IMG/VR virus record: IMGVR_UViG_2690316161_000021
Coordinates: 1-32,930 of that record
DNA: 32,930 nucleotides
Direction: 5' to 3' (one strand)
DNA from: a virus
Taxonomy: Duplodnaviria; Heunggongvirae; Uroviricota; Caudoviricetes
The position numbers were made by a program, and so were the translations under genes. The stretch's first letter is position 1. The number at the start of each line of letters is the position of its first letter. Below the pieces are notes generated by a model that did no database searches, was not told the DNA's origin, and worked only from the letters and a program-made list of their open reading frames with translations. Below are positions 1-32,816 of the stretch, piece after piece.

Positions 1-981
1 CTAACGTCTTGCTTTTAACAATAACCAGATAAACACCGGCGCACCCAACGTTGCGGTGACCACGCCAATAGGCAGCTCTGCGGCAGCTAATGCCAGGCGC
101 GCTACAATATCGGCCAGCAGCAATGCGCTCGCCCCTGCCAGCGCGCAGCCGGGAAGTAATACGCGATGATCGGTTAAACCACACAACCGAAGAATATGTG
201 GGATCACCAGACCAATAAAGCCGATAGCACCCGCCAGCGCCACACTGACGCCAACCATCCAGCCGGTCGCGGCCACCAGCACATTGCGCCAGAACCACAG
301 GGGTAAACCCAGTTGCCGCGCCGAGATCTCGCCAAGTGCTAACATATTCATCGGCCTGGACTGACAACAGATCCACAACAACACGGGGATCAATGCCAGC
401 ATCAGCCAGCTTTGCCGCCAGTCTACGCCGCCAAAACCGCCCATCATCCAGTACATCAGCTGACGTAAATCAACAGAGGTGGAAAAGTAGATAGCCCACG
501 TCATTAGTGCGCTACAGATAATCCCTAATGCAACGCCAGCCAGCAATAACCGACTGGTCGAAAGATGACGACGGGCGAAACGTAAGAGTATTAAAGTGAT
601 GATAAGCGCGCCAGCAATCGCACACAGCCCTAGCGCCCAGTTGGGGAGTTGCCCTTGCCCAAGCAATACCGCGGCGATAAGCCCCACGCCTGCGCCGTTA
701 GAGACGCCAAGTAGTCCAGGTTCTGCCAGAGGATTTTCAAACAACGCCTGCATTACAGCGCCGGATATAGCCAGCGCCGCACCAACCAGCAATACAGCCA
801 GCGTACGTGGCAGGCGAATTTGCCAGACGAACAGTTCGCCACGAGGAGTAAACCAGTCACCTGGCGAGATCCATTGTTCACCGGCGCAAAGGCTTAAGAG
901 AAGCGCCAGCAGCATCAAAACTGACAGGCATAATAACCAGCGAATATTTTGTCGCTGTTGTTGGCGGGCAAGTGTCAGCAT
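1..981 (-). CDS. btuC: Vitamin B12 ABC transporter permease BtuC (FecCD family), complete 326 aa
   Basis: Full-length minus-strand ORF with multi-pass hydrophobic profile; sequence matches E. coli BtuC as I recall it ([17 protein letters not shown]...). GC-rich host-like composition. Confidence 0.9.
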
Positions 982-1038
982 GGTATCCGTTCTGCTGAAG
1001 TGTCATGGCGTTGATTTTACGGTGACTCTTCGACAGTG

Positions 1039-1064
1039 AAAAGAAAAAAGGCCGCAGAGCGGCC
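1039..1064 (-). terminator. Intrinsic terminator ending the int-cargo transcript
   Basis: Perfect 6-bp GC stem GGCCGC/GCGGCC with 3-nt loop (1050-1064), followed on the minus strand by a U-run (complement of the A-run at 1039-1049); lies 110 bp past the stop of the 184-aa cargo gene. Confidence 0.5.
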
Positions 1065-1173
1065 ATAAACACAAGCAAAAATCAATAAGTTAGATAATTA
1101 TCAAAGACTTACAGACACACAAAAACACAGCCAACCACAACAAATAACAGGGATGTGGTCAATTTGTGGATCA

Positions 1174-1728
1174 TCAGCCAACAAATTTAGCAACAAATAC
1201 AGCAACCGCCGCCGTGAAAATGGTTGTGCATACTGGCACAATAATGCCACTCCAACGCCACTTCGTATTATCATCAACCTTGTCAAACCGCCGATTCATC
1301 TCATCCATAATCTTGTCAAAGCGTTTATCCATCGCTTCGGTAAGCTCACCCTTCAGGCTGTTAATGTCTGATTTGAGCTGCTCTTTCAGGTGAGCTGTAT
1401 CAGATTTAAGCTCACCTTTTAGATTCGCAATATCGCATTTAAGATCACCTTTCAGATGAGCAATGTCTGCTTTGAGCTCACCTTTCACCTCACCAACATC
1501 AGCTTTGGTTGAGAGGTTTGTAGTGCGTTCAGTAAGCGTCGCAAGGTCGTTTCTTGTTAGCGATAAATCACCTTCGAGTCGCTCAATTCGCCTTTCAAGT
1601 TTATCTGACATTCCGCCTCCACTACTGCCGCCATCGCCGCCATGATAAAGCACATCACGCTCAGAATGCGACATACTACCTGCTGAATTACCGAAAAGGT
1701 TTCTTGCTGCATTACCCATTTTCACCAT
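1174..1728 (-). CDS. Hypothetical tail-anchored coiled-coil protein with five 11-residue repeats (cargo)
   Basis: 184-aa ORF with Gly-rich N-terminus, five tandem hendecad repeats (VKGELKADIAH / LKGDLKCDIAN / LKGELKSDTAH / LKEQLKSDINS / LKGELTEAMDK) and one C-terminal hydrophobic segment (IIVPVCTTIFTAAVAVFVAKFV). Start overlaps the upstream gene by 17 nt. Confidence 0.6.
   Translation of the reverse strand: MVKMGNAARNLFGNSAGSMSHSERDVLYHGGDGGSSGGGMSDKLERRIERLEGDLSLTRNDLATLTERTTNLSTKADVGEVKGELKADIAHLKGDLKCDIANLKGELKSDTAHLKEQLKSDINSLKGELTEAMDKRFDKIMDEMNRRFDKVDDNTKWRWSGIIVPVCTTIFTAAVAVFVAKFVG
1335..1495. repeat. Roughly 33-bp tandem repeats (about 5 units) inside the 184-aa cargo CDS
   Basis: Recurring TTTGAGCTCACCTTTCA-like units at 33-bp period on the plus strand, corresponding to the 11-residue protein repeats. 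Confidence 0.6.
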
Positions 1729-2212
1729 CCTGCGCTTTGTCTTTCTCCAACCACTTCAGCACCGCAGACGTACGGTAAAGGCTCAGGTAACCACAATTCA
1801 GGCAATGCAGCGTGTAATAAGTTTTGCGCATATCAGGTATGCTCTTAACATCACCAAAAAAAGTATAAGATACATAATGCTTTATGTTCTCTTTAATTAA
1901 CTCACTCTGCTCCTCCAAGGGTAGATTGTTAAAATTTTCTGGTTTCTTATTTTTATCCCAACAAAGATCCATACTTTCAGGAATAGATAATCGCGACGAT
2001 CCACATGAAGGGCAGACACTGGAGACCCCCTTCTCAGACAAGAAACGGAAGAAGATTTCTGGCGTAATCTCCATCAGCCGCTCTTTATGTTTTTTGACAC
2101 GACTCATCGACTTCTTATTGATTTCATCAGCTTCTTCTTTGCATTTATCTTCTATATATTTCGATAGTAAATAGTCATATAACTCTTTTTTTGTAGGTTT
2201 TTTTATTTCCAT
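1712..2212 (-). CDS. Hypothetical zinc-ribbon protein (two CxxC pairs), AT-rich cargo gene coupled to int
   Basis: 166-aa Lys/Glu-rich ORF with CPSCG and CLNCG motifs. Its ATG lies 3 nt after the int stop (TAACTATGG); local GC is clearly lower than the flanking phage and host DNA. Confidence 0.6.
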   Translation of the reverse strand: MEIKKPTKKELYDYLLSKYIEDKCKEEADEINKKSMSRVKKHKERLMEITPEIFFRFLSEKGVSSVCPSCGSSRLSIPESMDLCWDKNKKPENFNNLPLEEQSELIKENIKHYVSYTFFGDVKSIPDMRKTYYTLHCLNCGYLSLYRTSAVLKWLEKDKAQDGENG

Positions 2213-2214
2213 AG

Positions 2215-3192
2215 TTACATTCCTCCCAAGGGATTAAACCTCACCGCATCCTGCAAGTAATCCGGCGCAAGATGGGCATAAATCATCGTTGTCTGAATCT
2301 TTGCGTGCCCCAGAATTTTCTGGAGCGTCAGAATATTGCCGCCGTTCATCATGAAATGACTGGCGAAGGTGTGGCGCAGCGCATGAACAGCCTGGCCGTC
2401 GGGAACATCAGGTGCGACCGTTTTGATGACATCGCGAACCAATGGATAATCCAGCGTCGGAAACACCAGTTTCCCGCCCCGTTTTTTGATCTTTTCAAAC
2501 AGGCTTTCAGAAATAGGAACGGTACGGTTTTTGCTGTTCTTCGTTTTTGAAAAAGTGATTCGACAATGAAGAACACGGCGCTGCTCCAGTGCCGCTACCT
2601 CGCCCCATCGCGCCCCGGTCGACAGAAGGATTTCGACAGCCAGCCGTTCATCGGGATTTTCAGCCAGTGCATCCAGCAACTGAACACATTCAGACTTACT
2701 CAGATATCCCATTTCACGCTCGTTAACCTTCATTCCTTTAAGGCCTTGAACGGGGTTATCATTAAGAAAATGGCCGGATGAGATGAGTGCGGTAAACATC
2801 GCGCTTAACGCCCCAATCTCTCGATTTATGGTGCTGGGCTGTATCCCCTGCTCTATCCTGGACACACGTAGCTCGGTGAGCATTGTTGTATTAAGTTTAT
2901 GCACGCACGGGTCATCCATTGCCTCACTCAAGCGCAGCAATTTAAGGCGCGTGTTATGCCCTGACTTCATTAGCTGGCCGTGGTATTTCCACCACAAGTC
3001 AATAAGCACTGACAGAGGACGGCGATCAATAGAGTTTCCTTTCCACTCATTGTTATGCTGTTGCGCCAGCACCCACCGCTCATATAAAACTGCATCCGAT
3101 TTCGTTTTAAATTTTTTGCGAATGCGTTTGCCTTTACGCCCCTCAGGGCGCATGTCAAGAAGATACCCTCCCGGAATTGATTTTATGCTCAT
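2215..3192 (-). CDS. int: Tyrosine-type site-specific integrase (P2 Int-like)
   Basis: C-terminal catalytic region with HxLRHT-type motif (AVHALRHTFASHF) and the catalytic tyrosine region (IQTTMIYAHLAPDYL). The ORF extends to 3342, but the start is placed at the internal ATG at 3192 (MSIKSIPGGYLL) so it does not overlap the repressor gene. Confidence 0.9.
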   Translation of the reverse strand: MSIKSIPGGYLLDMRPEGRKGKRIRKKFKTKSDAVLYERWVLAQQHNNEWKGNSIDRRPLSVLIDLWWKYHGQLMKSGHNTRLKLLRLSEAMDDPCVHKLNTTMLTELRVSRIEQGIQPSTINREIGALSAMFTALISSGHFLNDNPVQGLKGMKVNEREMGYLSKSECVQLLDALAENPDERLAVEILLSTGARWGEVAALEQRRVLHCRITFSKTKNSKNRTVPISESLFEKIKKRGGKLVFPTLDYPLVRDVIKTVAPDVPDGQAVHALRHTFASHFMMNGGNILTLQKILGHAKIQTTMIYAHLAPDYLQDAVRFNPLGGM

Positions 3193-3241: not shown

Positions 3242-3550
3242 TTAGCCGGGCTGTGTGCCAGTCTTGCGGGGTTTTTGAGAAGGCGATGTGCTTTTTGGCC
3301 CATCAGGGGAGAGAGACGGACTGATCTGCCCAGCAGCCTCATTTGTTTTTCCCGTCATAAGCCAATTCATGTACTTAAAAAAGCGAGGGTGATTAACAAT
3401 CTTGATAAGCACTTCGCCCCCTATGTTTTCAATCCGCCCCGTTTCATAACGACGCAAAGTGCCGATAGGCACATCAATCAGGCCGCAAAATTCTTCGCGC
3501 GTTAAATCCTCTGATTCACGAATCACTCTAATTTTTTCACCGATAAGCAT
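3242..3550 (-). CDS. Immunity repressor, P2 C-type
   Basis: About 100-aa protein; the pattern EKI..R.SE.L.R...GTL..YE.GR....P.F.KY..W.MT...ESGQI.P...SP.SGQKTG matches P2 C as I recall it. Sits upstream of int and divergent from the early operon. The start is uncertain (the ORF extends to 3586). Confidence 0.75.
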   Translation of the reverse strand: MLIGEKIRVIRESEDLTREEFCGLIDVPIGTLRRYETGRIENIGGEVLIKIVNHPRFFKYMNWLMTGKTNEAAGQISPSLSPDGPKSTSPSQKPRKTGTQPG

Positions 3551-10169: not shown

Positions 10170-11129
10170 ATGAAAATTTACATCGACGACGGCTCCACCA
10201 ACATCAAGCTGGCATGGACTGAGAACGGCGAACGCCGCAACGCCATCAGCCCGAACAGCTTCAAGTCGGAATGGTCTGCGCCGTTCGGTGGCTCGCAGCC
10301 TGCTAACTACATGCTTGATGGCGTGCGCTATGGTTTTGATCCGGTCAGCGATCGCTTTGTCCAGACGACCGACACGCAATACCAGTACAGCGATGTGAAT
10401 GTCATTGCCATTCATCACGCGCTGGTCAAATCAGACATCACGCCACAGGAAGTGGATGTGGTTGTTACCCTGCCACTGAGCGAATATTTCGACACAAACG
10501 CACAGCCGGACATGGCCAACATCAACCGCAAAAAAGCGAACGTCATGCGCCCGGTGGAGTACCAGAACGGCGAAGCATTCACTATCCGTAACGTACGGGT
10601 TATGCCTGAATCCATTCCGGCTGGCTTTAAAGCACTGGCTGACATGAGTCCGTTTGAATCCCTGCTGATTGTGGATTTGGGCGGAACCACGCTGGATGTG
10701 GCAAAGGTTCAGGGGCAACTGGCAGGTATCAGCCAGGTGTTTTGCGATCCACACGTAGGCGTTTCTCTTATGGCCGATGCCGTACTGTCGGTGATGGCCA
10801 CTAACGGTATGCGCACCAGTCACCACATCGCCAATACCATTATCGAACATCGCCATAATGAAGCCTGGCTGCGCCAGCACATCCACAATGACGCGCATTA
10901 CGCCAGCCTGATGGCGGTTATTCGTGAAAAGGAAGAAACACTGAAACAACGCGTGATCCGCGCGCTGGCGGTTTTTTCGGGTTACGGGCGGGTGATGGTT
11001 GTCGGTGGCGGGGCGGAGATTGTGGCACCCGCTATCCGCGAAGCCTGCGGAGTTAATGCGACTTTCATCGCGGACGGGGTGCCACAGTTTGCTCTGGTTA
11101 ATGGGCTGTACGCAATGGACAAGGAGTAA
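10170..11129 (+). CDS. parM: ParM/StbA-like actin-type segregation ATPase
   Basis: 319 aa with actin-fold motifs IDDGSTNIKL, DLGGTTLD and VVGGGAE. From memory it is collinear with plasmid R1 ParM (YSDVNV, ERKKAN, VMPESIPAG); not verified by search. Confidence 0.8.
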   Translation: MKIYIDDGSTNIKLAWTENGERRNAISPNSFKSEWSAPFGGSQPANYMLDGVRYGFDPVSDRFVQTTDTQYQYSDVNVIAIHHALVKSDITPQEVDVVVTLPLSEYFDTNAQPDMANINRKKANVMRPVEYQNGEAFTIRNVRVMPESIPAGFKALADMSPFESLLIVDLGGTTLDVAKVQGQLAGISQVFCDPHVGVSLMADAVLSVMATNGMRTSHHIANTIIEHRHNEAWLRQHIHNDAHYASLMAVIREKEETLKQRVIRALAVFSGYGRVMVVGGGAEIVAPAIREACGVNATFIADGVPQFALVNGLYAMDKE

Positions 11130-11133
11130 ACCA

Positions 11134-11445
11134 ATGACGACACCAACCAGACGGATAAGTTTCTATCTGAAGCCCGCCGCCGTCAAGAACGAAGGAGAAG
11201 CATGCGCCTGGCTGGACAGCCTTACACCAGAAGCCCGCAAAAGCGGCCAACGCGTGGCTTTTCTGGCCGGGCTGGCACTTCTGAAGACGAATCCGGCAGA
11301 GGCTTACCGACTGGCCGCATGGGCTGATGATGAGATGTTACCTGTGACACAAATCAGCTCAAAAAAGTTTGAAGCACAGTCTGCACCAGTGGCTAAGATA
11401 ACCAGCCAGATGGCTGGGAATATCCGGGCGTTATTTCCTGAGTAA
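11134..11445 (+). CDS. parR: ParR/StbB-like small DNA-binding partner
   Basis: 103 aa starting 4 nt after the parM stop with AAGGAG RBS; N-terminal RRISFYLKP and LAGLAL resemble R1 ParR as I recall it, and the C-terminus ends IRALFPE. Confidence 0.6.
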   Translation: MTTPTRRISFYLKPAAVKNEGEACAWLDSLTPEARKSGQRVAFLAGLALLKTNPAEAYRLAAWADDEMLPVTQISSKKFEAQSAPVAKITSQMAGNIRALFPE

Positions 11446-23252: not shown

Positions 23253-23853
23253 TTCGTTGTTACCACCATCAGCCAGCAATTTCATGCGTTGTGCCGAAGC
23301 CGTCGGAACACGCATTACAGACATTCCGGTAGACCTCAACACGCTGTGGTCGCCGGACACCTGCCCGGTGCATCTGCTGCCTTATCTCGCCTGGGCGTTT
23401 TCCGTTGACCGCTGGGATCGCAACTGGCCGGAAGAGACAAAGCGACAGGTAATTCGTGATGCATGGCTGATACACCGACACAAAGGGACCATCAGCGCAC
23501 TGCGAAGAGCCGTGGAGCCTCTCGGCTACCTGATTGAAGTAAAGGAGTGGTGGCAACTCAACGAGGAGCCAGGAACATTTCGCATTGTTGTCGGAGTACT
23601 TGATCAGGGCATCACCGATGAAATGTATCAGGAACTTGAGCGCCTTATTGCGGATGCAAAACCAGTAAGTCGCCATCTGACGGGGCTGGCGATCAGCCTG
23701 AGTGTGAACGGAAAGATTTTCGTTGGTACGGGATGCTATCACGGCGATGCCCTGACGGTTTATCCCTACACCCCGGAGTCCATTATTGTCGAAGGGGATT
23801 ATTTCCCTGCCCCGGCCATTCATTTAATTGATAATCTGAGAGTAAACGCATGA
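23245..23853 (+). CDS. I: Baseplate/tail protein (P2 gpI-like)
   Basis: About 200 aa from the ATG at 23245, overlapping the J stop. Confidence 0.7.
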   Translation: MSNSLLPPSASNFMRCAEAVGTRITDIPVDLNTLWSPDTCPVHLLPYLAWAFSVDRWDRNWPEETKRQVIRDAWLIHRHKGTISALRRAVEPLGYLIEVKEWWQLNEEPGTFRIVVGVLDQGITDEMYQELERLIADAKPVSRHLTGLAISLSVNGKIFVGTGCYHGDALTVYPYTPESIIVEGDYFPAPAIHLIDNLRVNA

Positions 23854-25331
23854 CAGTGAAATACTACGCCATTCTGACTAATCAGGGCGCAGCACGACTG
23901 GCTAACGCGACGATGCTCGGCAGTAAGCTGAATCTGACGCAAATGGCCGTTGGTGATGCAAATGGTGTGTTACCAACACCAGACCCTGCACAAACAAAAC
24001 TGATTAACCAGAAACGCATTGCACCGCTGAATCTTCTGAGTGTTGACCCTAACAATCAGAGCCAGATTATTGCGGAGCAAATCATCCCTGAAAACGAGGG
24101 AGGATTCTGGATCCGTGAGATTGGTCTTTATGATGATGAAGGTGTACTCATTGCGGTGGCAAACTGCCCGGAAACGTACAAACCGCAGTTGCAGGAAGGC
24201 AGTGGACGCACCCAGACTATCCGCATGATTCTGGTTGTCACGAACACCGAAGCTATCACGCTGAAAATCGACCCGTCTGTGGTTCTGGCAACCCGCAAAT
24301 ATGTGGATGATAAAATCTCAGAGCACGAACAGTCACGACGTCACCCGGACGCCTCGCTGACCGCAAAAGGTTTTACTCAGTTAAGCAGTGCAATTAACAG
24401 TGAATCAGAAACACTGGCCGCAACACCGAAAGCGGTTAAGGCTGCATATGACCTGGCTAACGGGAAATATACCGCCCAGAACGCCACCACTATACAAAAA
24501 GGGATTGTTCAGCTCAGTAGCGCCACGAACAGCACGTCTGAAACGCTGGCAGCGACACCAAAAGCTGTTAAGGTGGTAATGGATGAAACGAACAAGAAAG
24601 CACCATTAAACAGCCCGGCACTGACCGGAACGCCAACAACACCAACAGCGCCACAGGGAACTAATAGTACCCAGATCGCAAGCACGGCTTTCGTTATGGC
24701 CGCGATTGCCGCACTTGTAGATTCGTCACCTGATGCACTGAACACGCTGAACGAACTGGCTGCGGCGCTGGGCAATGACCCGAATTTTGCGACCACCATG
24801 ACTAACGCGCTTGCGGGTAAGCAACCGAAGGATGCCACCCTGACGGCGCTGGCGGAGCTTGCTACATCAGCAGATAAACTCCCATATTTTACAGGGGCAG
24901 ATCGTGCCGCGTTAACCGCGTTGACAAGTGTTGGACGTGCCATTCTTGGTAAAACCAGCACTCAGGGAGTTCTTGATTACCTTGGTTTGGGAGAAGCGGC
25001 AAAACGGAATGTGGGAACAGGGGAAAATCAGATACCAGATATGTCTGCATTTCCATCTGGCAAAAACTGGTTTCAGTTACCAAGTGGTCATATTGTCCAA
25101 ATGTTTTCGATGAATGTTTATGGGGCGGACACTAACGGAACTACAGGTAATTTCCCTATTGCATTTCCTTCAGGCGCACTGGCTGTTAGTGCCTTATGGT
25201 CAGATGGCTCATTAACCGCTGCTCCGACCTTTAAACTTATGGGGTACACGACAACAAGGACATCAGTAACCTTAAAAGTATCAACCGGAAATGGTTTGTA
25301 TGGAACTATGATTATCGCAATAGGAAGATAA
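23850..25331 (+). CDS. H: Tail fibre protein (P2 gpH-like) with exchangeable C-terminal tip
   Basis: 493 aa; conserved N-terminus (MAVGDANG...GGFWIREIGLYDDEGVLIAVAN) and an internal duplicated QLSSA.NS.SETLAATPKAVK motif. A hix-like site lies inside the gene at 24970-24995. Confidence 0.85.
   Translation: MTVKYYAILTNQGAARLANATMLGSKLNLTQMAVGDANGVLPTPDPAQTKLINQKRIAPLNLLSVDPNNQSQIIAEQIIPENEGGFWIREIGLYDDEGVLIAVANCPETYKPQLQEGSGRTQTIRMILVVTNTEAITLKIDPSVVLATRKYVDDKISEHEQSRRHPDASLTAKGFTQLSSAINSESETLAATPKAVKAAYDLANGKYTAQNATTIQKGIVQLSSATNSTSETLAATPKAVKVVMDETNKKAPLNSPALTGTPTTPTAPQGTNSTQIASTAFVMAAIAALVDSSPDALNTLNELAAALGNDPNFATTMTNALAGKQPKDATLTALAELATSADKLPYFTGADRAALTALTSVGRAILGKTSTQGVLDYLGLGEAAKRNVGTGENQIPDMSAFPSGKNWFQLPSGHIVQMFSMNVYGADTNGTTGNFPIAFPSGALAVSALWSDGSLTAAPTFKLMGYTTTRTSVTLKVSTGNGLYGTMIIAIGR
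24970..24995 (+). other. Candidate Gin/Hin/Pin-type crossover site inside H (TTCTTGATTACC TT GGTTTGGGAGAA)
   Basis: 26-bp site with 12-bp half-sites flanking a 2-bp core, resembling the hix/gix pattern as recalled; its 3' 15 bp are identical to the site at 31411-31425. Confidence 0.55.
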
Positions 25332-25486: not shown

Positions 25487-26164
25487 ATGTCCATCATTTT
25501 TAATGGACACTATCGTATGAAACACCGGACCTGGATCACTGAAGCTTTACGTCTTCACTTTGAAGAACATTTACCCCGGGTTGTGGCCGGGCGTCGCCTG
25601 GGTGTACCAAAATCAACAGTTTGTAGTATGTTCGTGCGCTTTCGGAGAGCTGGCCTTTCGTGGCCTTTGCCCGCAGGCATGTCGGAGCAGGAACTTGATG
25701 CCTGCCTTTACGGACAATTTTCCACGGTACCAGTCGTACGTCCTGAAAGCACCGTTATATCCGAAGCCCCCGTGGTAAAAAAACGTCCCCGGCGGCCCAA
25801 CTTCCCTTATGAGTTTAAAATCGCCTTAGTGGAGCAGTCACTGCAGCCCGGAGCCTGTGTGGCGCAGATCGCCCGGGAAAACGGAATCAACGATAACCTG
25901 CTCTTCAACTGGCGCCATCAATACCGGAAAGGTGGCCTGCTGCCTTCCGGAAAAAATATGCCGGCACTGCTTCCCGTGACGTTAACGCCGGAGCCGGATA
26001 ATAAAATCCCGGCCCCCGCACAGGAACCAGAGCAGATAAATACACCGTCCGACAGTCTGTGTTGTGAGCTGGTTCTGCCGGCCGGAACTCTCAGGCTTAA
26101 AGGTAAACTGACGCCGGCGTTATTACAGACACTTATCCGCGAAATAAAAGGGAGCAGCCACTGA
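25487..26164 (+). CDS. tnpA: IS66-family accessory protein TnpA (orf1)
   Basis: First ORF of the element, ATGA-coupled to tnpB; start codon uncertain. Confidence 0.6.
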   Translation: MSIIFNGHYRMKHRTWITEALRLHFEEHLPRVVAGRRLGVPKSTVCSMFVRFRRAGLSWPLPAGMSEQELDACLYGQFSTVPVVRPESTVISEAPVVKKRPRRPNFPYEFKIALVEQSLQPGACVAQIARENGINDNLLFNWRHQYRKGGLLPSGKNMPALLPVTLTPEPDNKIPAPAQEPEQINTPSDSLCCELVLPAGTLRLKGKLTPALLQTLIREIKGSSH

Positions 26165-26511
26165 TGATATCTCTCCCTGCAGGTTCGCGTATCTGGCTGG
26201 TTGCAGGTATCACCGATATGCGAAATGGCTTTAACGGCCTGGCATCAAAAGTTCAGAACGTCCTGAAGGATGACCCGTTCTCCGGACACCTGTTCATCTT
26301 CCGCGGACGCCGGGGTGACCAGATAAAAGTGTTGTGGGCTGACAGTGACGGACTGTGCCTCTTCACCAAACGCCTGGAGCGGGGCCGCTTCGTCTGGCCA
26401 GTCACCCGTGACGGCAAGGTGCACCTTACTCCGGCTCAGTTATCCATGCTTCTTGAAGGTATCAACTGGAAGCACCCGAAACGAACGGAACGCGCTGGAA
26501 TCCGCATATAA
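26164..26511 (+). CDS. tnpB: IS66-family TnpB (orf2)
   Basis: 115 aa, typical size and position for IS66 orf2. Confidence 0.8.
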   Translation: MISLPAGSRIWLVAGITDMRNGFNGLASKVQNVLKDDPFSGHLFIFRGRRGDQIKVLWADSDGLCLFTKRLERGRFVWPVTRDGKVHLTPAQLSMLLEGINWKHPKRTERAGIRI

Positions 26512-26530
26512 CCCGTTGTAAAGTGAGGAT

Positions 26531-28102
26531 ATGGACACCTCACTTGCTCATGAGAACGCCCGCCTGCGGGCACTGTTGCAGACGCAACAGGACACCATCC
26601 GCCAGATGGCTGAATACAACCGCCTGCTCTCACAGCGGGTGGCGGCTTATGCTTCCGAAATCAACCGGCTGAAGGCGCTGGTTGCGAAACTGCAACGTAT
26701 GCAGTTCGGTAAAAGCTCAGAAAAACTTCGTGCAAAAACCGAACGGCAGATACAGGAAGCACAGGAGCGAATCAGCGCACTTCAGGAAGAAATGGCGGAA
26801 ACGCTGGGTGAGCAATATGACCCGGTACTGCCATCCGCCCTGCGCCAGTCTTCAGCCCGTAAACCGTTACCGGCCTCACTTCCCCGTGAAACCCGGGTTA
26901 TCCGGCCGGAAGAGGAATGCTGTCCTGCCTGTGGTGGTGAACTCAGTTCTCTGGGATGTGATGTGTCAGAGCAACTGGAGCTTATCAGCAGCGCCTTTAA
27001 GGTTATCGAAACACAACGTCCGAAACAGGCCTGTTGCCGGTGCGACCATATCGTGCAGGCACCAGTACCTTCAAAACCCATTGCACGCAGTTATGCCGGA
27101 GCGGGGCTTCTGGCCCATGTTGTCACCGGGAAATATGCAGACCATCTGCCGTTATACCGCCAGTCAGAAATATACCGTCGTCAGGGAGTGGAGCTGAGCC
27201 GTGCCACACTGGGGCGCTGGACAGGTGCTGTTGCTGAACTGCTGGAGCCGCTGTATGACGTCCTGCGCCAGTATGTGCTGATGCCCGGTAAAGTCCATGC
27301 TGATGATATCCCCGTCCCGGTCCAGGAGCCGGGCAGCGGTAAAACCCGGACAGCCCGGCTGTGGGTCTACGTCCGTGATGACCGTAACGCCGGTTCACAG
27401 ATGCCCCCGGCGGTCTGGTTCGCGTACAGTCCGGACCGGAAAGGTATCCATCCACAAAATCACCTGGCCGGTTACAGCGGTGTGCTTCAGGCCGATGCTT
27501 ACGGTGGTTACCGGGCGTTATACGAATCCGGCAGAATAACGGAAGTCGCGTGTATGGCTCATGCCCGGAGAAAAATCCACGATGTGCATGCAAGAGCGCC
27601 CACCTACATCACCACGGAAGCCCTGCAGCGTATCGGTGAACTGTATGCCATCGAGGCAGAGGTCCGGGGCTGTTCAGCAGAACAGCGTCTGGCGGCAAGA
27701 AAAGCCAGAGCCGCGCCACTGATGCAGTCACTGTATGACTGGATACAGCAACAGATGAAAACACTGTCGCGTCACTCAGATACGGCAAAAGCGTTCGCAT
27801 ACCTGCTGAAACAGTGGGATGCACTGAACGTGTACTGCAGTAATGGCTGGGTGGAAATCGACAACAACATCGCAGAGAACGCCTTACGGGGAGTGGCCGT
27901 AGGCCGGAAAAACTGGATGTTCGCGGGTTCCGACAGCGGTGGTGAACATGCGGCGGTGTTGTACTCGCTGATCGGCACATGCCGTCTGAACAATGTGGAG
28001 CCAGAAAAGTGGCTGCGTTACGTCATTGAACATATCCAGGACTGGCCGGCAAACCGGGTACGCGATCTGTTGCCCTGGAAAGTTGATCTGAGCTCTCAGT
28101 AA
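26531..28102 (+). CDS. tnpC: IS66-family transposase TnpC
   Basis: 523 aa with N-terminal leucine-zipper-like region, a CxxC...CxxC zinc motif and a DDE-type core; ends 30 bp before the right IR. Confidence 0.85.
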
Positions 28103-28132: not shown

Positions 28133-30216
28133 GGAGCGATGCCGCCAGTGGGCAGGCATTTCTTGCAATGGCTGGTTTTACTCCGCAGGCCATTCAGGCT
28201 GCGCTTCCCGGCGTGCTGAGCATGGCAACGGCTGGCGGTATGGATCTCGGCGAGACGGCGGATATTGGCTCAAATATCCTGACGCAGTTCGGCCTTTCTG
28301 CTGACCAGATGGACCGGGTCGGTGACACACTTACCGCAGCGTTTACCCGTACCAACACTGACCTTCGCGCACTGGGTGAAACCATGAAATATGCAGGTCC
28401 GGTGGCGGGCAAGCTGGGAATATCGCTGGAGCAGGCCGCAGCGATGGCGGGCGTACTGGCGAATATGGGTATCAGGGGAAGTGATGCCGGGACGGCAATG
28501 CGTGCCAGCCTGGCTCGTCTGGCATCACCGCCAAAGGCGGCGGCAGAAGCTCTGAAAGAGCTGGGCGTGTCCGTCTCTGATGCGAACGGCAAAATGCGCC
28601 CGATGGAGGATTTGCTGGCCGACCTTTATAAAGCCACCCGCAAATACGGGGAAGTTGACCGGGTATCGTTCTTTAAGGACATTGCCGGAGAAGAGGCTTT
28701 CACATCATTTATGGCCCTCGTTGATGCGGCAGGTGACGGCTCCTTACCTAAACTGAGAAAAGAACTTGAAGGCGCGCGCGGTGAGGCTGAGCGCACGGCA
28801 AAGGTTATGGCCAACAACCTTGACGGCGATCTGAAATCACTCGGCAGTGCATGGGAAGGGTTGCGCATCCGCATTGCAGATCTGATTGACGGTCCGCTGC
28901 GTTCTGTCACGCAGTGGCTAACGCGGGTGGTCTCAAAGGTGACGGCACTGGCGCAGGCCCATCCTGTACTGACGCGCCAGCTACTGATTGCAGGCGGTGC
29001 GCTGCTGGCAGTGACTGCAACCGTAGGCTCGTTGTCGCTTGCTCTTGGTGTGCTTGCTGGCCCACTGGCAAAACTGCGTCTTGGTTTTTCCCTCCTGACC
29101 GGATCAATGAATGCTGTCAGGCTCCTGCCAGCACTATGGGGAATGGTGACGGGTTCCGTTTCTTTGCTGGGGGGTGCTATCGGGGCGCTGTTCAGTCCGG
29201 TTGGTCTTATCGTGGCTGCGCTTGCCGGAGCTGCCGTTCTTATCTGGAAATACTGGGATCCCATCAGGGCATTTTTTGCCGGGGTGTTCAGCGGGATTAT
29301 GGAAAGGCTGGCCCCGTTGCGCGAAACCTTTGAACGGTTTGGTCCTGTTTTTGACGCAATCGGAAGCGGGATCAGCCAGGTGTTTAACTGGTTTAAATCG
29401 CTGCTGTCACCGATGGAGTCCAGCAAGGAAACGCTGGATAAATGTACCAGTGCTGGCGAGATATTCGGTAACGTTCTTGGCGGTGCGTTACAACTTGTTC
29501 TGACGCCTGCAAAAATGCTACTGGATACGCTGGCGTGGATACTTGAAAAACTTGGCGTCCTTCCGGATGAAGCGGAAAGGGCGCGCAAGAAAATCGAAGA
29601 CGCACAGCGTGCGGCCATTCTTCAGGACAAGGTTGCCTTGCTTCAGGGGGACCTGGCGAAAATCAATCCGCCGAAGCCTGTGGAAAATGGCAATGGCACC
29701 GGAGGTGATAAACCCAAAGACAACAAACCGCTCACAGACAGCAATACCGGTACGCTACGCAGACTCAGCAAAATTGCTGATAACACAGGTAAGCTGGTTG
29801 ATGAGACGAAAAAACGCATTGGCCCCGGCGATATTGTCTTTAAGAACCTGCCCCGCGCACTTGCTGTTCGTGGGGAGTGGCAGGAGCGGAAGATTGCGCA
29901 GGTCAGTAAGCCTGCTTCCGCAATCAACATCACACCCGTGGTCCCGACTCCTCTGCCTCCGGCGCTGGTCCCTGTTGTTGCGGCCAGCTCCCGCCCGGTG
30001 GCGGAGGCCATACGATCGCCAGTGGCATCAGTTCCTGCAACTTCCCGTAACCGGGAGCCTGTTGTCTCCGGATTTGGCGGTGAAATTCATGTTCATCTGC
30101 ATAACGTTGTTACGCAGAATCCCCGCGAACTGGCGAAACTGGTCGGTGAAATGGTCAGGGCAGAATTGGAACGACGCGACCGTGCCGGACGTGGCAGTTT
30201 TTACGATAAAGATTGA
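28133..30216 (+). pseudogene. T: Tail tape measure protein (P2 gpT-like), 5'-truncated at the IS66 boundary
   Basis: The reading frame is open from the first base after the IS; 682 codons from the first ATG at 28168; Ala/Gly-rich with hydrophobic central segments; followed by gpU. Confidence 0.75.
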
Positions 30217-31892: not shown

Positions 31893-32494
31893 TGGATAAC
31901 GCCGTATTAAATAGCGAGCTTATTGCCACGAAGGCGGGGAATATTACCGTCTATAACTATGATGGTAAAACTCGGGAATATATTTCTACTTCAAATGAAT
32001 ATCTTGCCATTGGTGTCGGTATCCCTGCATATTCCTGTCTGGATGAACCTGGTATACATAAGGCGGGTTATGCTATCTGCCGTTCGATGGATTTAAACTC
32101 ATGGGAATATGTGCCAGACCATCGCGGTGAAATCGTCTATAACACCGAAACGGGAGACGCCAAAGAAATCACAGCTCCGGGTGATTATCCTGAAAATACA
32201 ACCACTATCGCCCCGTTAACGCCATTCGATAAATGGGATGGTAAGAAATGGGTGACCGATACTGAGGCACAACACGGTGCCGCAGTAGAAGCGGCAGAAG
32301 CACAGCGCCAGTCACTGATTGATGCAGCAATGGCTTCCATCAGTCTGATTCAACTGAAATTGCAGGCCGGACGTAAACCGACGCAGGCAGAAACAACCAG
32401 ACTTAACGCTGTGCTGGATTACATTGACGCGGTGACGGCAACAGATACCAGCACCGCGCCGGATGTCATCTGGCCTGAACTGCCGGAGGCGTAG
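31892..32494 (+). CDS. Tail fibre assembly chaperone (Tfa) paired with the alternative tip
   Basis: 200 aa; C-terminal ...LDYIDAVTATDTSTAPDVIWPELPEA is homologous to the C-terminus of the split G gene; converges with the G 3' fragment. Confidence 0.7.
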   Translation: MDNAVLNSELIATKAGNITVYNYDGKTREYISTSNEYLAIGVGIPAYSCLDEPGIHKAGYAICRSMDLNSWEYVPDHRGEIVYNTETGDAKEITAPGDYPENTTTIAPLTPFDKWDGKKWVTDTEAQHGAAVEAAEAQRQSLIDAAMASISLIQLKLQAGRKPTQAETTRLNAVLDYIDAVTATDTSTAPDVIWPELPEA

Positions 32495-32816
32495 GCCATT
32501 CAATATCTGGCGCACTGGAGGTATCAACCAGCTCCAGTGCCTCCAGATAATCCAGCCACAAATTATATTGCGCCAGTTCCTCACCTTTCAGACGACCAAT
32601 AGCGGCTTTACCGGGCCATTGTTTACTGTTCATGTATTCGTTGGCCTGGTTAATCAATAATTGCCTCTCTGATTCGGCCTGTTCAATAAGTTCCTCATGT
32701 GATGGTGGAGGTATTTCAGCCCATGTGGGAAAACCATTTTCCCCTGCAACTCGGATTTTCCCTTGTGGCGGTTCCGCCATATATTTTACAGAAATGTCAT
32801 CAGGAATATCTAATGC
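32466..32816 (-). pseudogene. G: 3' fragment of the split tail fibre assembly gene G
   Basis: Minus-strand frame reads ALDIPDDISVKYMAEPPQGK...DIEWPTPPAVQAR; joined to the 25333-25433 fragment across the shared 8-mer it gives an intact Tfa of about 147 aa. Confidence 0.8.

Follow-up and report, generated by a model that had tools for sequence, protein, structure and literature searches.

A paired zinc-ribbon gene and tail-anchored coiled-coil gene in the integrase-att interval of a P2-like Escherichia coli O157:H7 prophage, tentatively read as an exclusion or abortive-infection module

The DNA analysed here, referred to as the window, is a stretch of 32,930 nucleotides (nt) from IMG/VR record IMGVR_UViG_2690316161_000021 (positions 1 to 32,930), which carries a P2-like prophage of Escherichia coli O157:H7. 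A pair of small genes is located in it between the integrase gene and the attachment (att) site. All coordinates are window positions; gene 1 denotes the 166-residue zinc-ribbon gene and gene 2 its tail-anchored neighbour. From btuC through the repressor gene, every relevant gene lies on the minus strand, and the features of this region are the following:

1-981, minus strand: btuC, with its start at 981
About 1037-1064, minus strand: att core at attL, corresponding to the intrinsic terminator of host ihfA
1065-1173 (109 nt), minus strand: phage arm of attL, non-coding, 33% G+C, between the core and the gene-2 stop codon
1174-1719, minus strand: gene 2, DUF1640/CCDC90-like coiled-coil protein of 181 residues, predicted to be tail-anchored
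1189-1251, minus strand: C-terminal transmembrane segment of gene 2 from hydropathy, residues about 157-177, followed only by KFVG
1321-1506, minus strand: five 11-residue (33-nt) stalk repeats of gene 2, residues 79-133, with direct DNA repeats at 1346-1506
1498-1515, minus strand: beta-layer motif LSTKAD of gene 2, residues 69-74
1612-1719, minus strand: N-terminal peptide (residues 1-26) and Gly-rich linker GGDGGSSGGG (residues 27-36) of gene 2
1712-2212, minus strand: gene 1, predicted Cys4 zinc-ribbon protein of 166 residues, phrog_4293
1793-1804, minus strand: second zinc knuckle of gene 1, CLNC (C137, C140), then G141, all invariant in 61 sequences
2003-2014, minus strand: first zinc knuckle of gene 1, CPSC (C67, C70), invariant in 61 sequences
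2215-3192 (RefSeq start; the longest open reading frame, ORF, extends to 3342), minus strand: P2-type tyrosine integrase (int), stop codon at 2215-2217
3242-3550 (RefSeq; longest ORF to 3586), minus strand: C-type helix-turn-helix repressor (C), presumed first gene of a C-int-gene 1-gene 2 lysogenic transcript

Between 900 and 3400 the window matches E. coli O157:H7 FRIK944 and six further complete genomes at 100% identity, and the RefSeq labels in this stretch are 'phage integrase', 'hypothetical protein' and 'DUF1640 domain-containing protein'. The pair directly follows int, as had been described in a first-pass annotation made from the letters of the window, but the gap between the int stop codon and the ATG of gene 1 is 2 nt (2213-2214) and not 3. 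A Shine-Dalgarno sequence for gene 1, GGAGG, is found within the last int codons, 9 nt ahead of the ATG. The pair is also AT-rich with respect to its neighbours, as noted before, with a G+C content of 0.38 in gene 1 and 0.45 in gene 2 as compared to 0.49 in int and 0.55 in btuC.

Gene 1 encodes, in agreement with the initial description, a Lys/Glu-rich protein with two CxxC pairs. Lys and Glu account for 25% of its residues, the four Cys of the two pairs are invariant among 61 family members, and the remaining two Cys are not conserved; W154 is a further invariant residue. This family-wide pattern is that predicted for a Cys4 zinc ribbon, and no named zinc-ribbon family of Pfam matched gene 1 at its cut-off. 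The protein matched phrog_4293 (E-value 1.2e-22), to which no function is assigned. The family is very small: 14 matches were obtained in 5.8 billion proteins, and a profile search gave 85 clusters at E-values up to 0.001 among 1.84 billion representatives. The AlphaFold model, built with 61 sequences, has a predicted local distance difference test score (pLDDT) of 91 and a predicted template modelling score (pTM) of 0.72. It starts with a 40-residue N-terminal Lys/Glu-rich helix; a short helix, to which the conserved segment ITPExFxxFL corresponds, comes next, and then a small zinc-ribbon domain rich in beta structure, with a C-terminal helix closing it; shorter family members (110-137 residues) lack the long helix. 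An MqsA-like protein in BFVD was matched only at an E-value of 0.7. For gene 1 we also considered a zinc finger of the Ogr/Delta type, or a decoy of such a finger, and rejected it, since the Cys spacing differs and no profile matched.

Gene 2 overlaps gene 1, as first reported, although the proposed extent of 184 residues with a 17-nt overlap did not stand. These figures correspond to the most upstream ATG (1728), which has no suitably spaced Shine-Dalgarno sequence. A start at the ATG of 1719, which AGGA precedes by 8 nt, yields a protein of 181 residues and an 8-nt overlap with gene 1 (ATGGGTAA), and this overlap geometry is also called in homologues of 47-58% identity. Because of the Shine-Dalgarno sequence and of the same overlap in divergent homologues, the protein most likely has 181 residues. 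The Gly-rich N-terminus, the five 11-residue repeats and the single C-terminal anchor that had been recognised in it are all present. The repeat units are KGELKADIAHL, KGDLKCDIANL, KGELKSDTAHL, KEQLKSDINSL and KGELTEAMDKR, and the Kyte-Doolittle profile over 19 residues has its maximum, 2.43, at residue 159. A sixth copy of the 33-nt repeat (83% identical, 32581-32609), inside a tail-fibre-assembly ORF (32466-32780, minus strand), was judged a probable chance likeness of a KAAIGRLKGE-like peptide.

Gene 2 scored 26.5 bits (E-value 6.7e-06) against the CCDC90-like family PF07798 of Pfam and did not reach the cut-off of 33.5; several clusters of its close homologues carry a precomputed PF07798 match, and the NCBI naming is DUF1640/CCDC90. 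Its motif LSTKAD, in which T71, K72 and D74 are invariant in a five-sequence alignment, conforms to the beta-layer motif [aliphatic]-A-T-K-[polar]-[D/E] found at the start of the DUF1640 stalk (Hartmann et al. 2016, PMC4786415). By layout and NCBI name, gene 2 may thus be described as DUF1640/CCDC90-like, below the formal Pfam threshold. It also matched phrog_9415 (E-value 9.5e-15), again with no function assigned. Against PDB sequences nothing significant was obtained, the bacterial structure 6H9L being weakly matched by gene 2 at an E-value of 0.2. The stalk may be trimeric. It would be cytoplasmic, since a charged N-terminal region of 150 residues carries no signal peptide and only four residues follow the transmembrane segment; a Cys4 zinc protein would be expected in the same compartment.

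The contexts of gene-1 homologues were read at 16 zinc-ribbon loci from E. coli, Salmonella, Klebsiella and metagenomes, the most distant of them sharing about 25% identity. At 16 of 16 loci the homologue is directly followed, at a spacing of -8 to +11 nt, by a gene for a coiled-coil protein that has a transmembrane segment at its C-terminus. These partners share a common plan, made of a variable N-terminal peptide, a Gly-rich linker, a conserved helix (M-L/S-D-x-L-E-x-R-V/I-E-x-L-E), the beta-layer motif, a stalk of variable length and the transmembrane segment. The last of these was found in all the 15 partners compared and always follows the coiled coil as a single segment, as in gene 2. 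The motif, in the form [F/Y/L]-[A/S/V]-[T/S]-K-x-[D/E], is present in 13 of the 15, and a comparable N-terminal peptide and linker in 14, the partner at locus L025 having no Gly-rich stretch.

Wherever the contig includes the upstream flank, the pair is downstream of the lysogeny repressor and on the same strand. The order is C, int, pair and att in P2-like elements, both at the btuC site (E. coli and Salmonella) and at a different one next to queC; it is cI (an S24 repressor), pair and int in 186-like elements, and cI and pair in one further element. A simple scan of the pair's strand between the repressor and the pair gave no sigma-70-like site. Given this and the constant position after the repressor, expression in the lysogen by read-through would be the most economical interpretation. 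The co-transcription with C and int that the first-pass annotation had proposed is accordingly held plausible on sequence grounds, the 2-nt gap and the GGAGG at the end of int being in keeping with it. The remark that genes after int are atypical for P2 was also fair, though the interval between int and att is listed as a minor P2 defence hotspot in a 2026 preprint (10.64898/2026.02.27.708500).

A hairpin and T-run are located 110 nt past the gene-2 stop codon. In the terminator scan this element appeared on the minus strand as the hairpin GGCCGC-TCT-GCGGCC at 1064-1050, followed by TTTTTTCTTTTC. When the region 700-1400 was searched by megablast in 5426 complete E. coli genomes, most of them, K-12 included, matched only up to position 1064. 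The empty site of K-12 reads ...gtgaaaagaaaaaaggccgcagagcggcc|tttttagttagatcagattactcg (ihfA stop), and in the window phage DNA adjoins the hairpin that K-12 shares. At attR, 23-28 nt of the core recur beside ihfA; in FRIK944 the hairpin is found again about 35 kilobases away, directly before ihfA. Since the element is identical in empty-site genomes and duplicated at attR, what had been taken for the unit's terminator is that of host ihfA and at the same time the att core. A terminator about 110 base pairs beyond the stop, with btuC past it, had been correctly located, but it is not the phage unit's own. With both the stem and the T-run inside it, the core remains able to stop the phage transcript short of btuC. 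A promoter-like site directed into btuC (TTTTCA-17-TAAAAT, 1042-1014, minus strand) begins in the T-run, that is within the core, so insertion of the prophage leaves the region immediately upstream of btuC as before.

As the hairpin is the att core, attL and int enclose the pair, which is thus part of the prophage and is missing from the empty ihfA-btuC sites. The comparison with empty sites thus bears out the phage-borne origin suggested at the outset. Gene 1 is present in 23 of the 5426 E. coli genomes, once in each, and in all 23 it is joined to int and btuC; no E. coli genome had the pair next to btuC without the prophage, an arrangement that would have pointed to host genes. A related pair is carried by a 32-kilobase P2-like Klebsiella record, which was deposited as a plasmid and is included in the phage collection. 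Searches of this collection by megablast with the region and by tblastn with gene 1 gave no match, and tblastn with gene 2 retrieved, besides the Klebsiella record, only DUF1640 genes that stand unpaired, in Liberibacter and APSE phages. A distant homologous pair was found intact next to ihfA, beside the remnant of a decayed integrase, on contigs of up to more than 1 megabase. It belongs to an enterobacterial metagenome lineage (loci L027 and L028, 3800-4728), has a degraded C-terminal integrase fragment just upstream and no further phage genes nearby, and faces ihfA, the pair of the window facing btuC. This is a case of retention after prophage decay.

The phage arm of attL is present in 299 of the 5426 genomes at 90-100% identity, irrespective of the adjoining cargo. 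The cargo of the slot between the core (about 1037-1064) and int (2215-3192), which in the window is the pair (1174-2212), was counted by allele-specific DNA searches of the same genomes. The allele of the window was found in 23 genomes, a second allele (TUM1880 type) in 14, a third and very divergent allele of the pair (DLI.5a type) in 86 and an unrelated gene of 131 to 138 residues (E2348/69 type) in 158. The content of the slot thus varies among closely related prophages, as is typical of hotspot cargo. The unrelated gene, the commonest occupant (L003 5472-5888 in E2348/69), encodes no transmembrane segment and no Cys4 arrangement and has no PADLOC match.

With respect to the window, the DNA of the TUM1880 type is about 99% identical from attL to the Gly linker and then switches, so that the recombination breakpoint falls within the N-terminal peptide and linker (1612-1719); its zinc-ribbon protein is only 25% identical to gene 1 (E-value 2e-11), inside flanks of about 99% identity. 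Zinc-ribbon and stalk alleles shuffle independently: loci L007 and L016 share 30% identity in the zinc-ribbon protein and 89% in the partner core. Over 15 pairs, the divergence of the zinc-ribbon protein correlated with that of the partner's N-terminal peptide and with that of its core at a Spearman coefficient of 0.24 in both cases, and the split by N-terminal peptide was correct in 6 of 15. The stalk varies in another way, since gene-2 alleles of 192, 181, 170, 159 and 148 residues differ by steps of whole 11-residue units. One E. coli allele (L029 3887-4471) contains three perfect LKGELKADIAH and two perfect LKSEFKCDIAN units, which indicates a recent tandem duplication of the 33-nt unit; the three perfect copies mean that the repeat number is actively changing. 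The variety of alleles and genes in the slot fits a cargo engaged in an arms race.

Public annotation records the pair incompletely. RefSeq/PGAP gives gene 2 only 145 residues, from M40 (1611), that is 1174-1611, and this start excludes the N-terminal peptide and the Gly linker, which are conserved as coding in the partner genes read. Gene 2 of the Klebsiella record is also started short by PGAP (the coordinates affected are window 1174-1611, L002 3806-4219 and L022 3992-4303). In five listed TUM1880-type genomes the zinc-ribbon gene is unannotated, TTG being the sole start codon listed in frame for it among the ORFs. With gene 2 truncated and the zinc-ribbon gene of the second allele unannotated, surveys based on annotation would under-count the pair.

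Taken together, the strict pairing, the translational coupling and the repressor-operon context, along with a turnover of alleles suggestive of an arms race, in a slot reported as a minor defence hotspot of P2, and the retention after prophage decay, suggest that the two genes are a single module, expressed in the lysogen, membrane-tethered and made of two components, which would act in exclusion or abortive infection in a Rex-like or toxin-antitoxin-like manner. This is the explanation we tentatively favour, by analogy, giving it somewhat less than an even chance. A soluble protein encoded first and a membrane protein second, with overlapping stop and start codons, is the order of antitoxin-toxin operons. 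According to the preprint cited above (10.64898/2026.02.27.708500), cargo of P4 hotspots with no recognised function is often protective, 6 of 8 randomly chosen examples having protected against phages, and the int-att interval holds 3% of P2 defence systems.

In the mechanism that we envisage, the two genes would form one conserved module, which P2/186-like prophages carry as part of the lysogenic (repressor) operon, and transcription reading through from the promoter of the repressor would provide both products in the lysogen. The gene-2 product would be tail-anchored in the inner membrane, with a DUF1640/CCDC90-type stalk projecting into the cytoplasm; the number of 11-residue units would set the length of the stalk, and the flexible Gly-rich linker would end in the short N-terminal peptide. 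The gene-1 product, a cytoplasmic Cys4 zinc-ribbon protein whose translation is coupled to that of gene 2, would bind the gene-2 product and control it. At the inner face of the membrane, a component of an incoming phage would be sensed by the zinc-ribbon subunit or would titrate it, and the membrane subunit would then block entry or damage the membrane. A more specific form of this reading, in which the pair founds a new exclusion or abortive-infection system with a zinc-ribbon sensor of unmatched fold controlling a trimeric alpha/beta-coiled-coil effector whose reach is tuned by the 11-residue units, seems to us doubtful.

Several results weigh against an antiviral function. No function could be assigned from Pfam, NCBIfam, PADLOC or PHROGs, and in Pfam and NCBIfam nothing exceeded the cut-off. 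In PADLOC-DB 2.0.0 the matches were low-complexity coiled-coil ones only, to the stalk regions of ZorA, LmuB and LeoBC (E-values 2e-05 to 3e-02), plus one to DUF3800 (E-value 0.005), none of which identifies a known defence system; three other alleles gave nothing in PADLOC. The homology and structure check suggested in the first-pass annotation yielded the DUF1640/CCDC90 likeness of gene 2, but for gene 1, although a model of pLDDT 91 was obtained, no solved fold matched. No allele-specific co-variation of zinc-ribbon and N-terminal peptide was seen, in a comparison to which we give no weight (the rho of 0.24 and the 6 of 15 correct splits given above). A single transmembrane segment with four residues beyond it offers no obvious channel, and the mitochondrial relatives of gene 2, MCUR1 and CCDC90B, are described as scaffolds and not as toxins. 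The literature searched had nothing relevant on DUF1640/CCDC90 in connection with prophages, on tail-anchored superinfection exclusion or under the RefSeq protein accessions. Finally, the machine-learning estimate in the preprint is that 15-32% of P2 proteins of unassigned function are antiviral (10.64898/2026.02.27.708500).

The scaffold character of these relatives is what lends some weight to lysogenic conversion unrelated to defence, which we regard as unlikely. The pair would then be a membrane-tethered cytoplasmic scaffold that alters host physiology, for example in stress tolerance, in the tethering of ribosomes or proteins as for the tail-anchored E. coli proteins ElaB and YqjD, or in virulence-associated fitness of Shiga toxin-producing and enteropathogenic E. 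coli. Gene 2 belongs to the DUF1640/CCDC90 architectural class, in which papers describe mitochondrial MCUR1 as a scaffold factor, many carriers are strains of these two pathotypes (O157, O145, O103, O26), and the pair is kept after prophage decay. On the other hand, 25% identity inside 99% identical flanks and exchange with an unrelated gene are not expected of a housekeeping-type benefit, no match to ElaB/DUF883 or to virulence families was obtained, and the family extends beyond the pathotypes to Salmonella, Klebsiella and metagenomic contigs. Survival of the intact pair beside a degraded integrase could also be read as addiction, with gene 2 as a small membrane toxin and gene 1 as its zinc-binding antitoxin, so that loss of the prophage would kill the cell and selection would act on this rather than on defence; the antitoxin-first order with overlaps of 4 to 8 nt is in line with this, and the FRIK944 prophage, with a hok/gef toxin across attP, demonstrates that addiction cargo occurs near this att site. 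We consider it distinctly unlikely all the same: the pair resembles no known toxin-antitoxin family, the unrelated single gene occupying the slot in 158 genomes argues that it is readily lost or replaced, and toxins of the membrane-peptide type are usually far smaller than the partner, most of which is a soluble stalk.

The proximity to int and to the repressor might instead reflect a role in the phage life cycle, either membrane-linked control of lysogeny, integration/excision or induction, or an XhlA/holin-type lysis accessory. In PHROGs, the C-terminal third of gene 2, and only this third, has a weak likeness to holin (E-value 0.0064), XhlA-like haemolysin (0.04) and spanin (range 0.006-0.04); these values are below a meaningful threshold, and the XhlA family of Pfam did not match gene 2 at E-values up to 1. 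Such a role is improbable, moreover, since about half or more of the near-identical prophages appear to do without the pair (158 genomes carry the unrelated gene, 299 the attL arm), which makes it dispensable, canonical P2 has nothing in the slot, lysis is encoded at another place, by genes of the late operon, and the pair is kept in the absence of a phage. That the two ORFs are non-functional or mis-annotated products of AT-rich att-arm DNA would agree with the omission of the zinc-ribbon gene by PGAP in five TUM1880-type genomes and with its truncation of gene 2. Both, however, show conservation at the protein level over a range of identity from 99% to about 25%, with an invariant Cys4, G141 and W154, a conserved architecture and an AlphaFold pLDDT of 91, and by this pattern of conservation the possibility is effectively refuted.

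Compared with known systems, the favoured exclusion or abortive-infection module has a parallel of position in RexA/RexB of lambda. There the order is cI-rexA-rexB and the abortive infection genes are co-transcribed with cI; the present pair, co-oriented with the lysogeny repressor and downstream of it, is likewise a two-gene cargo of a temperate-phage repressor operon, with one soluble and one membrane component. It differs in that there is no likeness in sequence or fold and in that RexB has four transmembrane helices and gene 2 a single C-terminal one. Searches for Rex families in Pfam, PHROGs and PADLOC gave no match, and neither homology to RexA or RexB nor a polytopic subunit was found. 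With MqsRA, a type II system with a zinc-binding antitoxin, the pair has in common two small overlapping or tightly adjacent genes, one of them for a zinc-binding protein (in the pair by prediction); they are not homologous, the MqsRA toxin is encoded first and is an RNase, and the second gene here encodes a membrane coiled-coil protein. The analogy with type II toxin-antitoxin systems is one of gene order and overlap. Gene 2 resembles the DUF1640/CCDC90 proteins (PF07798; MCUR1, CCDC90B) in its head helix, in the beta-layer motif at the start of the stalk and in the one C-terminal transmembrane segment; unlike them, it has an additional N-terminal peptide and Gly linker and 11-residue units in variable number, and it is always paired with a zinc-ribbon gene and prophage-borne. 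To our knowledge, no bacterial member of DUF1640/CCDC90 has a known function. Membership of phrog_4293 and phrog_9415 suggests no mechanism, both being families with no function assigned.

As variable cargo in a conserved backbone, the pair resembles the contents of the hotspots for accessory and defence genes in P2-like phages (Rousset et al. 2022, PMC9122126; preprint 10.64898/2026.02.27.708500), the main P2 hotspots being, unlike its slot, the gpA-portal interval and a position within the tail genes. Under the terms searched, the pair does not appear in either of these sources. Accessory cargo in a P2-like hotspot is a known kind of finding, and the int-att slot is already noted in the preprint. 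The pair itself is undescribed in the literature searched and has no model in PADLOC-DB 2.0.0 or in the other family libraries; it joins a zinc-ribbon domain, for which no solved fold was matched, to a tail-anchored stalk of the DUF1640 type. If the pair does act in exclusion or abortive infection, it would be a mechanistically unfamiliar addition to the repertoire of P2-like prophages, and the int-att slot would carry hyper-variable alleles of one module and not only unrelated systems. It would also offer a tractable bacterial entry to the DUF1640/CCDC90 family, whose mitochondrial members MCUR1 and CCDC90B are still debated, and, were it the founding example of a new system, the first function of a bacterial member of that (MCUR1) family.

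Outside the region of the pair, the window differs from FRIK944 by 7 mismatches in btuC (window 1-849), and the register with FRIK944 breaks from about 5076, at a gene that is frameshifted in FRIK944. An IS66-family element (25487-28102) lies among the tail genes, between a tail-fibre gene (23850-25331) and a tape-measure ORF (28168-30216), and contains ORFs of 225 residues (HTH_Tnp_1), 115 residues (TnpB_IS66) and 523 residues (DDE_Tnp_IS66). The Pfam model of the tape-measure ORF is matched only from its position 27, and the ORF is on the strand opposite to that of the FRIK944 copy; the prophage in the window is probably rearranged and defective. Between replication gene A and the portal gene, in the main P2 accessory hotspot, there is a ParM-type actin-like segregation gene (319 residues, StbA_N and ParM) with a small downstream 'partitioning/stability' gene (10170-11445). 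In FRIK944 the hok/gef family toxin gene (L006 12907-13047) is located between ogr and attR, on the opposite side of attP from the pair, and a hypothetical gene of 201 residues is found between gene D and ogr.

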